Origin: Curvularia clavata
Lineage: Eukaryota
Reading direction: 5' to 3'
DNA length: 64,000 nt
Assembly (NCBI GenBank): GCA_023920165.1
Contig: CP089275.1
Coordinates: 3,162,001-3,226,000, forward strand
Numbering within the stretch: the first letter of the stretch is position 1; each line of letters opens with the position of its first letter. Positions 58,801-61,800 of the stretch are shown here, piece by piece. The position numbers and the translations under genes were made by a program. Under the pieces are notes generated by a model that saw only the letters and a list, made by a program, of their open reading frames with translations, searched no databases and had not been told where the DNA came from.

Positions 58801-61800
58801 GAGGATTCTCTGCTTACGGAGCATCATCTGCGCAAACGGGCCTCCGAAAATCATTCGTCGACTGTTTACAAACTTGTTTTTGACTACGATTTCGCGGCTA
58901 TCAAGCGCGAAGACTCCACTGTCAACATCAGGATAGATTACACTAACTTGATTCCCTATTGGGATGAAATGACTGGTAAAGAGTCCAAAAAAGGCAATAG
59001 CAAGCGCAGCCTTGAGAAGAGGTGGTGGGGCTCTTACGTCGACTGGCTCAAGAAGCTCAACACAGTGCGAGCAAGCGATGAAGGCCGCTTGCCGATGAGT
59101 ATACATCGGAAGATGACGCTGTATCGCAAGCGAGCTTCTTGTGCAAGAGGCAACACTCGTCTCAAGGCTGGACTGGACGTCATTTTGGATTCTAAAATCG
59201 ATATGAATGCGAGATGGGCTTATTACGCTCAGGGTACAATCGTGCCCCTGAAGGTCGACGAGGTATATACATACTTTGGTAAGTTGAGTCTTTGTGTCAT
59301 CGAATCACAGCACTAAGTTTGAAACTAGAGATGGAGCCCGTTGTTCAAGCTGTTCTCGAAGTCTCGGGCAACGCAGAAGTCGAGTATCGTATGAAGGAGC
59401 CCATCAAGATCATCGACACCCTAGCCTATCCTGGTCTCGCCATCAAGGGCATCGCTGCAATTGGACCTACACTAGATCTGTTGGGAGAAATGAGGGCGAA
59501 AGCAACAATTGCTGGGCAGATCAGAGCAGGTGCAAAGATCACATTCCCACGTTACGAAACCTATTTCCCGCAAATTCCAGAGGCCAGTGATTATCAGAAG
59601 GTACGTGTGTGTGAGATAAGTAGAAGGGCTTTCTGACCGTATTCTTTAGTTTCCGACCCCCAGTGCAAACCAAGAGCAATCTTCCAATGGTACAGGTATG
59701 TTACGTTTGCTAATAATACAGGTTGACATACTCGCTTACATGCCCATTCGTTCCAGATTTTACTCCTATACTTGATGCGTCTGTCCGAGCATCTGTTGGT
59801 GTTGACAGTAAGTTTCCGAACACCTGTAGCTTGATCCACACTGACAATATGAAGTCATGATCACACCCGTGGTCAACCTTGGAATCAAAGTCAATCATCC
59901 TAAGGTGAACGGCGATATTGTGAGCGCACAGGTATGGAACTGAGAATTCACCATGAATTTTGTCTAATTTGGACCAGGTTCAAGGCTTTGTCAACAACAC
60001 CTTCCGCTTTGAGGTCATAGGGAAAGGAGACGCTGGGGTCGGAACCAGTCCAGCCGCCTCGTATAGCATATTCATCAAGTATATCTACAACTTTGGAATA
60101 GGCGGTGCGGCTACATTCAAGTGGCTGGGATCATACGCTCTGCGCCCCCTACAACTCTGGCCTGGCGAAGGCCGCCAGAAGATTCTTTACGAGCACCATG
60201 GCCAAGTGGCTCTCAGCAAACGGAATCCCTTCATCTCAGACGGAGAATTCACAGAGAGGTTCGAGCCTATCTACAACTCGAGTTATGCCTTCTTTGATGA
60301 TGTCTCGGAAAGCGTTGACCTGTCTGGTGGTGCCATAGGACGCATCGACAAACGAGCCGAAGGTGACGAGAAAACTCCTCTTGATGAGGATACGACCCGG
60401 CTTTTCACCTGTAACGACGGCGGAAAATGCAAACAAGGCAATTGCAACGGAAACTCCTGCCAGTGGACGCCTGGACAGACTCCGAAAAAGCGCCAGGATA
60501 GTGACGACGAGGACGATCCGATGGACGTTGATTCAGACACTCCTTGCCCGGACTCGATTCCTGCATTCATGTACAACTGCAAATACTTCCCCGATATCAA
60601 CACAGACGGCTTCGAATTCCTTGGTATATGTCACAACATCTTAAACTACTTCCAGGACTTTCAGGGCGGAGGCTCTGGCCCTTTCTTTGGAACCTTCCAT
60701 CATACGAGTGCTGGCGAATCAAGCAACCGCGCAGCCGTTTGTGGGGCCAGGTCTTCGACGACGTATGCTTCAGTCGATGCAGATGGTGATTACGAAGAGG
60801 TAACAGGACCGTGGGACAAACGCTGCATTGCCGAGTCCAACTTCTACGCAAGGTCGGCTAGGAAGCCTGAGGGTCGCCCTGGTAACACCAATTGGTTGAG
60901 TTGTGATGAGTTTCCATTTAATGCGTAAGTCTGATCATTTTCTCATCGATTCCTAGCTAATTTTTGGAAGCTTGGAAGAAGGTGGCAATCCAAACGTAAG
61001 TTCAATTCAACGTTCCGTGTTTTTTTCCAGTACACTAATGCCTGACAGCGCAATGCGAGAGCTTGCGTACCTGGATACCAACAGAATGTTCAAGGCAATG
61101 CCAACCAAGTTCTGAACGGAATCCGCCAGCAGGTAACCTGGACAGATAACGCTGGCGGTACAAGGACTGCAACTAAAGCGTGGAGCATTGATTGGCGAGG
61201 CTCCAGCGCTACTGGCAGGAACAACAATCCTAACAAGGATACCGCCTGGAACTGGGCTTTGAACAACAACAAGGAGTTTACGATGCATTTATTTGACTCT
61301 GACTCCGACACAGACGCCAGGGGGGAAGCCTATAGTATATTCGAGCACACTCTTACGGGTGCGCCCTCTCAAGGCAACGCCCCAGCGAATCTGCAGACCG
61401 ATATTGCCAACGTGGTATCAGCCGTCAACTTCATGGACAACTCAAAGTACTCGGCAGACTACAACGCTTGGTGCAGCACGGGGCAGACCAGAGATCACGA
61501 ATTGTGGGGGCCTTTTACCAGAATATCACAGTGTAACGTCATTTTTGACAACGGGGCTGCGCTAAGGAAGATCAAGAGAGGAGAAAAACCAACCCAGGAA
61601 GAGATGTTCAATATCAAGAGTGAGTCCAGATCTGCTCGAATGATTTTGACGGATGGGTCGCTGACTGACTTGCACCAGGTATCGAGATTGCGGAAGAGGG
61701 AGAAAGTGTCGATATACCTCTTGGACTCAGTCCCGGTGGTGATGATGAAGAGAACAACGACACAGAAACAGCACTTGGAGGTCGCGATCACCGACGCCAT

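Follow-up and report, generated by a model that had tools for sequence, protein, structure and literature searches.

What stands at the C-terminal end of a large fungal chitinase, and how is it encoded? The question is raised by a gene of Curvularia clavata (Dothideomycetes, Pleosporales) located in positions 3,162,001 to 3,226,000 of contig CP089275.1 (assembly GCA_023920165.1); this whole stretch of 64,000 nucleotides (nt) is referred to below as the window, and coordinates are given in it unless another contig is named. An initial annotation, made from the letters of the DNA, had placed a NucA/NucB-like nuclease motif at the end of the chitinase, split by a 25-nt microexon, and had described it as a toxic warhead. 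Our analysis confirms the microexon and supports the assignment of the domain to the NucA/NucB (ComI) family by three independent lines, namely Pfam profiles, structure comparison and a language-model search. The warhead reading is a plausible hypothesis and is weighed below against its rivals. Residue numbers refer to P0001, a public C. clavata protein of 1664 amino acids (aa) that carries the source label hypothetical protein / chitinase and is 100% identical over the query frame.

Splicing of the microexon

The nuclease motif is spread over the following elements, which are shown together with the next intron downstream:

60925-60970 (+), intron 10: 46 nt, beginning with GTAAGT, CTAAT 14 nt upstream of the AG (60969-60970)
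60971-60995 (+), exon 11, the microexon: 25 nt, completing the codon of A1411 and then encoding LEEGGNPN
60996-61048 (+), intron 11: 53 nt, beginning with GTAAGT, CTAAT 14 nt upstream of the AG (61047-61048)
61620-61678 (+), intron 12: 59 nt

Exon 10 ends with ...AAT GC at 60924, and the exon that follows the microexon begins at 61049. The joints 60924>60971 and 60995>61049, with GT..AG intron ends, were found in contigs of the runs X1 and X2 (study P1) and X3 (study P2), and the joint of intron 12 (61619>61679) in contigs of X1 and X2. The type of these runs was only guessed as RNA; contigs free of introns are what complementary DNA gives. Another run, X10, covers 61237-61478 only and is uninformative on the microexon splice. 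The contigs carry the motif in frame, with no sign of the transcript ending or changing frame before it, and splicing gives exactly the peptide that had been proposed, which is also included in the deposited P0001. The preceding elements FMYNCKYFP...ICHNILNY and NRAAVC lie, as had been reported, in frame 59957..60928. This stop-to-stop frame does end at the microexon, after which 61046..61861 takes over.

When the microexon is included, the frame remains open for 254 further residues, up to the conserved C-terminus. Its skipping leads to a stop after 22 codons, retention of intron 10 to a stop after 1 codon, and retention of intron 11 to a stop after 48. No skipped joint (60924>61049) was found in the three runs covering the site, all of which are fully spliced, and the microexon-encoded segment is present in 15 of 15 full-length homologs. 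The 25-nt microexon is real, and its inclusion is the sole form that keeps the frame open. The run contigs also differ from the window at a few bases, which probably reflects strain variation: G>A at 61088, seen in all three runs, would change V1433 to Ile, and further differences lie at 60754 and 61352.

Among more distant relatives, the same region is not always interrupted. Metagenome contigs L123 and L130 have the same chitinase-nuclease order with an uninterrupted nuclease core (in L123 a single frame of 1314 residues runs from the end of the GH18 chitinase domain to the nuclease), and L121, an intron-free contig, is 80% identical over P0001 residues 921-1664. Contig L122, 49% identical over the nuclease region, is without intron 10 and has an intron at the same protein position as intron 11. 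The latter pattern suggests either that a new intron was gained 25 nt ahead of an older one, which created the microexon, or that intron 10 was lost in the lineage of L122.

Family assignment and predicted fold

A Pfam scan of P0001 gave a match to PF14040 (DNase_NucA_NucB) at residues 1393-1436, with 26.9 bits against a gathering cut-off of 23.8. Of the 11 homologs scanned, 8 reached the cut-off and all had E<=0.01, the best with 40.4 bits; the match reached E<=0.001 in 48 of 54 aligned relatives, and contigs L123 and L130 scored 36.5 and 31.3 bits, respectively. Pfam found no PF14040 when the two window frames were scanned separately, because the introns split the domain. The envelope of the nuclease domain hidden Markov model corresponds to residues 1285-1505. 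In the language-model search, all 30 nearest Atlas clusters were PF14040 clusters.

The fold was predicted with AlphaFold for the homolog P0057 (377 residues, 52% identical) using a 54-row alignment. The mean predicted local distance difference test score (pLDDT) of the model was 78.6, and residues 85-377 were mostly above 90. In a comparison with 48,161 PDB representatives, NucB of Bacillus licheniformis (6ejs) was the sole chain with Z>=5 (Z 9.4, root mean square deviation 2.7 Å, 107 of 109 residues), the runner-up having Z 2.0. When the best 989 chains of Foldseek were realigned, Z>=2 was obtained only for 9fj7 (10.1), 5omt (9.9) and 6ejs (9.4), all of them NucB, which superpose on the model with 107-108 of their 109-110 residues at 2.3-2.7 Å and cover its residues 83/86..301. 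Strands 202-207 and 222-227 and helix 228-243 of the model form the expected strand-strand-helix around the motif. The structural match to this nuclease type was thus obtained by the aligner-based searches but not by Foldseek alone, which gave nothing for the P0057 model at E<=0.001 (E 0.53, target-normalised template modelling score 0.57). According to this confident model, the domain has the NucB fold, that is, a beta-beta-alpha core with an Asp-Glu dyad replacing the usual His. The initial term His-Me finger is loose, as NucB itself has Glu in place of His (excerpts of PMC5758888).

Several results weigh against this assignment. The PF14040 match on P0001 is partial and marginal, spanning profile positions 39-80 of 100 only. 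NucB was not found in the PDB by three sequence searches, one with a single sequence and two with profiles. Comparison with 26 bacterial NucB sequences by hhalign was not significant (probability 2.4% for whole alignments and 13% for the trimmed domain), had 12-18 confidently aligned columns, and paired only FDRDEWPMAMCEEGG with LSCDEFP.N..EEGG. The fold match rests on the homolog P0057 and not on the protein of the window, whose own 224-residue piece, folded with a 20-row alignment, had a pLDDT of 50.9 and was unusable. Membership in DNase_NucA_NucB, as initially claimed, is nevertheless supported by the Pfam score above the cut-off, the fold match confined to NucB and the invariant Asp-Glu dyad.

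Active-site residues

In PMC5758888, the activity of NucB is reported to need Asp93 and Glu94 (DRDE), Asn117 (DNRG) and His53; Glu94 stands in for the usual histidine base, His53 positions Asp93, and Asn117 is metal-binding. The fungal D1405 and E1406, which hhalign pairs with D93 and E94, show no variation in the homologs (15 of 15) or in 20 more diverse relatives (20 of 20), among which no other column is invariant. The microexon-encoded E1414 is kept in 13 of 15 homologs, with Gln in the other two, and G1415 and G1416 in all 15; E1414, followed by these two Gly, matches the third acidic residue that excerpts of PMC3482391 describe for the ComI family. Further downstream, Q1431, Q1434 and N1438 are invariant in all 15 homologs, and position 1432 is variable (N3 D2 E4 Y2 I1 A1 F1 Q1). 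Of the motif SCDE...EGG...QN-x-QG put forward initially, the dyad, EGG, Q1431 and Q1434 are retained, but the Asn (N1432) is not conserved, and the signature is better written as QQ-x-x-QG.

Two of the residues needed by NucB have less certain counterparts, which counts against a fully equivalent active site. Asn117 aligns either with the invariant Q1431, in a low-confidence extension of the hhalign alignment, or, after a shift by one residue, with the variable position 1432. H1314 (ICHNIL) resembles His53 by pattern only, being His in 7 of the 15 homologs, Arg in 5 and another residue in 3; His53 is nearly invariant across the 26 bacterial NucB sequences. The window copy carries His1314, Gln1431 and Asn1432 and is therefore intact under either register of Asn117. 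The PDB entry 9fj7 is the N117Q mutant of NucB, the same substitution that the fungal clade may carry naturally; a paper on this structure was not found in the literature search.

Gene structure and protein architecture

The whole gene and the parts of its product that are needed below are as follows:

55838..61845 (+), whole chitinase-nuclease gene: script model with 13 exons, 1792 aa, TGA stop at 61843-61845
55838-56465, 56517-56643, 56692-56877, 56932-58052, 58118-59278, 59329-59600, 59650-59695 (+), exons 1-7
59757-59807, 59855-59931, 59978-60924, 60971-60995, 61049-61619, 61679-61845 (+), exons 8-13
55838..55909 (+), probable signal peptide of ~24 aa, suggested by the top hydrophobic window of the model (residues 6-24)
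55925..56185 (+), CBM18 chitin-binding region: PF00187, 48.9 bits, two Pfam stretches, the best at 56042-56185
56231..57397 (+), GH18 chitinase domain with three internal introns: PF00704, catalytic motif in frame 56507..56647
59406..59480 (+), segment of peak conservation: 25 residues (973-997), mean column identity 0.94 in 15 homologs
60485..60493 (+), dibasic K-K-R (1265-1267), candidate kexin site at which cleavage would occur
60545..60924 (+), first part of the nuclease domain: from C1285 to the second base of the A1411 codon
60905-60910 (+), codons of the Asp1405-Glu1406 dyad
61049..61300 (+), last part of the nuclease domain: R1420 to ~S1503, with strand CVP, a helix and the final strand FTMHLF
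61082-61084 and 61085-61087 (+), codons of Q1431 and N1432, in the helix of the nuclease domain
61301..61619 (+), conserved C-terminal extension: beta-rich in the homolog model, mostly with pLDDT >90, fold unmatched

The final 1177 residues of the model are identical to P0001, and its last three junctions are confirmed by the run contigs. The product is predicted to be a secreted GH18 carrier with CBM18, GH18 and a long C-terminal region. A hydrophobic N-terminus is followed by CBM18, GH18, a Cys-rich stretch, a conserved middle region of ~700 residues, a small Cys knot, K-K-R1267, an acidic linker, the nuclease of ~220 residues and the conserved extension. By its domain content, the chitinase may be assigned to subgroup C ('killer-toxin-like') and appears C-I-like. 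The middle region has a weak DUF7223 match, seen in 2 of 54 aligned relatives. Within it, residues 973-997 are Gly/Ala/Ile-rich and form the best-conserved stretch of the entire 1792-aa protein; they could be a membrane-interacting or delivery element. K-K-R1267 is a likely kexin site, to judge from its conservation, [KR]R being present, together with an acidic linker, 18-24 residues ahead of the first conserved Cys of the nuclease in 13 of 15 homologs. In the window protein this linker has 9 Asp/Glu in 17 residues, and cleavage would free a module of 397 residues with 9 Cys.

Relatives and their annotation

Precomputed annotation combines GH18 with PF14040 in 14 of the 21 long proteins found with the domain profile. 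These 14 proteins come from Dothideomycetes, Eurotiomycetes and lichen-forming Lecanoromycetes, as named by the sources, two of the lineages having been checked. When 52 nuclease domains were placed in a tree, rows fused to GH18 occurred in both major clades, without significant clustering of the fusion label (13 changes, a number as low in 31 of 500 shuffles). The tree supports neither a single nor a multiple origin of the fusion, because many unfused rows are fragments of fused genes. One relative, P0013 (698 aa), has a LysM-type N-terminus joined directly to the middle region and nuclease, without GH18; either it is a genuine variant lacking the chitinase, or its gene model is a merger.

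It had been suggested that automated annotation could miss the domain. This does not hold for P0001, which has both the microexon and a precomputed PF14040 label, but intron-blind gene callers do split the domain at this place. Eight open-reading-frame-type predictions (P0021, P0028, P0029, P0067-P0071) stop at the exon-10 boundary and four (P0025, P0027, P0072, P0073) begin just past it. They come from metagenome and run assemblies, and 8 of 10 such predictions that were tabulated are without a precomputed Pfam label there. The microexon is thus a practical warning: intron-blind callers halve the domain at its active site, and the halves go without a family label. The P0001 model has errors of its own at the other end of the gene. 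Its first exon is placed at 53977-54063, within the region of a LysM gene, and the model bypasses the real start with the signal peptide and CBM18 (window 55838-56257). It also splices out 51 nt at 57785-57835, encoding 17 aa whose core motif is found in 8 of 14 homologs.

Comparison with known systems

The domain has the same fold, and the same Asp-Glu dyad followed by an E-G-G turn, as the NucB/NucA (ComI) nucleases of Bacillus (5OMT, 6EJS, 9FJ7), which are likewise secreted. Compared with Bacillus NucB, the fungal domain is about twice as long (~220 aa), has an inserted hairpin-plus-helix and is Cys-rich; it has Gln or a variable residue at the position of Asn117 and no conserved equivalent of His53. 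Moreover, it is a module of a eukaryotic, intron-containing chitinase of 1792 aa and has a C-terminal extension.

The initial statement that the family provides toxin tips of bacterial polymorphic toxins is borne out by excerpts of Zhang et al. 2012 (PMC3482391), where it is named Tox-ComI and stands at the C-terminus of a large secreted carrier; fungi are already among the hosts of the ComI family there, and 'Tox-NucA' denotes a different family. The Curvularia carrier differs from these toxins in being a chitinase without RHS or HINT, and a ComJ- or SUKH-type immunity gene was not detected beside it by Pfam. The closest architecture in print is ORF2p of pDH5A, a killer-type linear plasmid of Debaryomyces hansenii (PMC8472843): a secreted ChtBD1 and GH18 protein with a NucA/NucB fragment close to the C-terminus, in which KEX2 motifs precede the DNase part and which was put forward, as a hypothesis, as a killer determinant. 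Compared by its description only, it differs in residing on a cytoplasmic, intron-free plasmid, in its length of 1226 aa and in having an autolysin-type fragment.

The zymocin-like systems of Pezizomycotina described by Heneghan, Salzberg and Wolfe (bioRxiv 10.1101/2024.10.25.620242) consist of C-II chitinases with LysM and a separate gamma ribonuclease, and LysM domains are a hallmark of C-II and plasmid chitinases. These clusters share with our locus a secreted chitin-binding GH18 carrier of subgroup C, neighbouring genes with LysM only, and introns. In zymocin, however, the anticodon nuclease is a separate small gamma subunit, while the Curvularia nuclease is fused and belongs to another family, and the Curvularia chitinase has CBM18 and no LysM, in contrast to the C-II chitinases. 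Fusions of C-II chitinases with an Hce2 effector domain (PMC13556262) follow the same principle of a fused cytotoxic or effector domain, but with another effector fold and family.

Print or automatic annotation thus already covers the family of the domain, its role as a toxin tip and the yeast-plasmid chitinase fusion. In the literature searched we found the fusion mentioned for a yeast plasmid only and no paper discussing it in filamentous fungi, although preprint supplements might list domain contents; 'NucA', 'NucB' and 'DNase' are absent from the main text of three papers on zymocin-like toxins. What is distinctive here is the microexon running through the active-site turn, the Gln or variable residue at the Asn117 position, and the large insertion and extension. 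The locus brings together three bodies of work, on Bacillus NucB enzymology, Tox-ComI toxins and fungal killer plasmids, which make no reference to one another in this respect. It also bears on the role of the long C-terminal parts of killer-toxin-like chitinases, for which a conserved, transcribed NucB-type nuclease is a concrete candidate open to mutation.

Possible function of the nuclease

Our preferred reading, held tentatively, is that the nuclease is an antagonistic payload of the secreted chitinase. The precursor would enter the secretory pathway by means of its probable signal peptide, and kexin, as the conserved dibasic site suggests, would cut after K-K-R1267, leaving the 397-aa Cys-rich module either freed or tethered. 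CBM18 and GH18 could then, as is usual for their families, dock on and open the wall chitin of another fungus, and the nuclease, by analogy, would degrade nucleic acid of the competitor, DNA or RNA. It would most likely act after entry into the cell, possibly aided by the highly conserved middle region, much as the alpha/beta part of zymocin delivers its gamma toxin. Analogy speaks for such a payload in three ways: the family serves as a toxin tip in bacteria, the D. hansenii plasmid protein has a similar architecture, and LysM genes flank the locus. A built-in payload would also have room in Dothideomycetes, since neither zymocin-like clusters nor separate gamma-toxin clusters were found there in the preprint of Heneghan et al. 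If the domain is active, it would be a module of possible interest for biocontrol and anti-biofilm work, and the Asp-Glu dyad gives a mutable handle on the question of what makes chitinases without a gamma-toxin partner antifungal.

A number of facts count against the payload. According to PMC8472843, no linear-plasmid protein has been found to have DNase activity, and NucB acts outside cells on extracellular DNA, as stated in excerpts of PMC5758888. LysM, the hallmark mentioned above, was found neither in any exon frame of the chitinase (Pfam, E<=1) nor in P0001; it is present in 1 of 16 GH18-bearing relatives. The nuclease core is itself acidic, with an isoelectric point (pI) of 5.07.

The main rival, which we regard as somewhat unlikely, is a purely extracellular nuclease that does not enter cells. 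It would degrade DNA outside cells, much as NucB does in dispersing biofilms; this DNA could stem from lysed hyphae (and serve the scavenging of phosphate and nitrogen), from the matrix of fungi or bacteria or from the plant, and the chitinase would place the enzyme on chitin-rich debris. Secreted fungal DNases can counter plant extracellular DNA. The 9 Cys of the 397-aa module fit a stable extracellular enzyme, and neither an immunity gene nor an import signal has been demonstrated. In a mushroom sclerotium, PF14040 occurs in abundance as a stand-alone protein (PMC7413093), and the only characterised relatives, NucB and NucA, are described in excerpts of PMC5758888 as secreted non-specific endonucleases that act on extracellular DNA. 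Such a role, however, leaves unexplained both the highly conserved middle region of ~700 residues and the repeated association with killer-toxin-like chitinases and killer-type plasmids.

A more specific proposal, which we consider improbable, extends the payload reading: subgroup-C chitinases without LysM and without a gamma neighbour would be self-contained killer toxins of one chain, in which the chitinase opens the wall, the middle region translocates the kexin-released nuclease across the membrane, the nuclease kills the competitor through cleavage of its DNA or RNA, and the convergent gene at 62069-62755 supplies the cytosolic antidote of the producer. If true, filamentous fungi, Dothideomycetes among them, would possess an equivalent of zymocin that is armed with a DNase.

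It is still more doubtful that the domain is a dead or repurposed NucB fold, acting as a nucleic-acid- or protein-binding module or as a structural element of the chitinase, similar to a beta-subunit-like delivery part. Such a role would agree with the Gln or variable residue in place of Asn117, the lack of a conserved His53 equivalent, the marginal Pfam score, and the insertion of ~45 residues and C-terminal extension relative to NucB. The invariance of the Asp-Glu dyad disfavours it, and little or no variation is seen in the dyad, EGG turn and QQ-x-x-QG helix across proteins that are only 42-55% identical overall, as is typical of selection for chemistry; in addition, the window copy has Gln1431, Asn1432 and His1314. 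Finally, it is highly improbable that the microexon is optional and that the main product, stopping before the active site, is a chitinase without a functional nuclease: although skipping or intron retention would yield early stops and minor isoforms are invisible in contigs, all three covering runs are fully spliced with none having 60924>61049, the 254 residues downstream are conserved, and L123, L130 and L121 encode the same residues uninterrupted.

Neighbouring genes

The payload reading directs attention to the genes on both sides of the chitinase-nuclease gene:

52154..53530 (-), LysM gene, divergent, upstream: PF01476, 61.4 bits; the frame at 53625-54188 is probably its 5' part
62069..62755 (-), convergent neighbour: single exon, 228 aa, pI 4.31, no N-terminal hydrophobic stretch seen
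63670..63975 (+), start of a LysM-type secreted gene: 54% identity to the gene after the neighbour homolog in L122

A LysM homolog lies upstream, on the opposite strand, in L123 and L124 as well. Downstream, the gene of L122 (3025-4414) that is matched by window 63670-63975 has the corresponding place and orientation and continues into LysM repeats, and the same window segment is 49% identical to the N-terminus of P0013.

The 228-aa neighbour is a weak candidate for an immunity gene. Its homolog (42% identity) occupies the same place and orientation in L122 (1360-2100, -), and the conserved blocks are WIRTWYG, FDNDAA and ADREACEDGWVL. It has no Pfam match at E<=10, so that no ComJ- or SUKH-type partner was detected; a PDB sequence search gave nothing meaningful (best E 0.33), and in the Atlas it matched only unnamed ascomycete clusters. 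Prediction of its complex with the nuclease core, made without alignments or controls, gave a score of 0.00 and a mark of 0.34 and is no evidence either way. Its candidacy, and with it the payload reading, is weakened by its conservation at one further locus only, the downstream genes of other relatives being different; of 20 metagenome loci, one contained a homolog, most of these loci being too short downstream to judge. In the more distant locus L130 (10640-11299, -) the convergent downstream gene encodes ankyrin repeats, again a different gene at this place. The ankyrin fold occurs among bacterial immunity proteins as Imm-ank, according to excerpts of PMC3482391, and the resemblance may be coincidental.

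A Pfam search of the 40 window frames of at least 120 aa revealed no separate gamma-toxin gene, but gamma toxins lack a Pfam model and may be shorter. Two other frames of the window look ordinary: one at 8585-9814 (+) with a match to a retroviral-type aspartyl protease, possibly the remnant of a retroelement, and an uninterrupted frame of 3245 residues at 40752-50486 (+) belonging to the Csf1/BLTP1 family.

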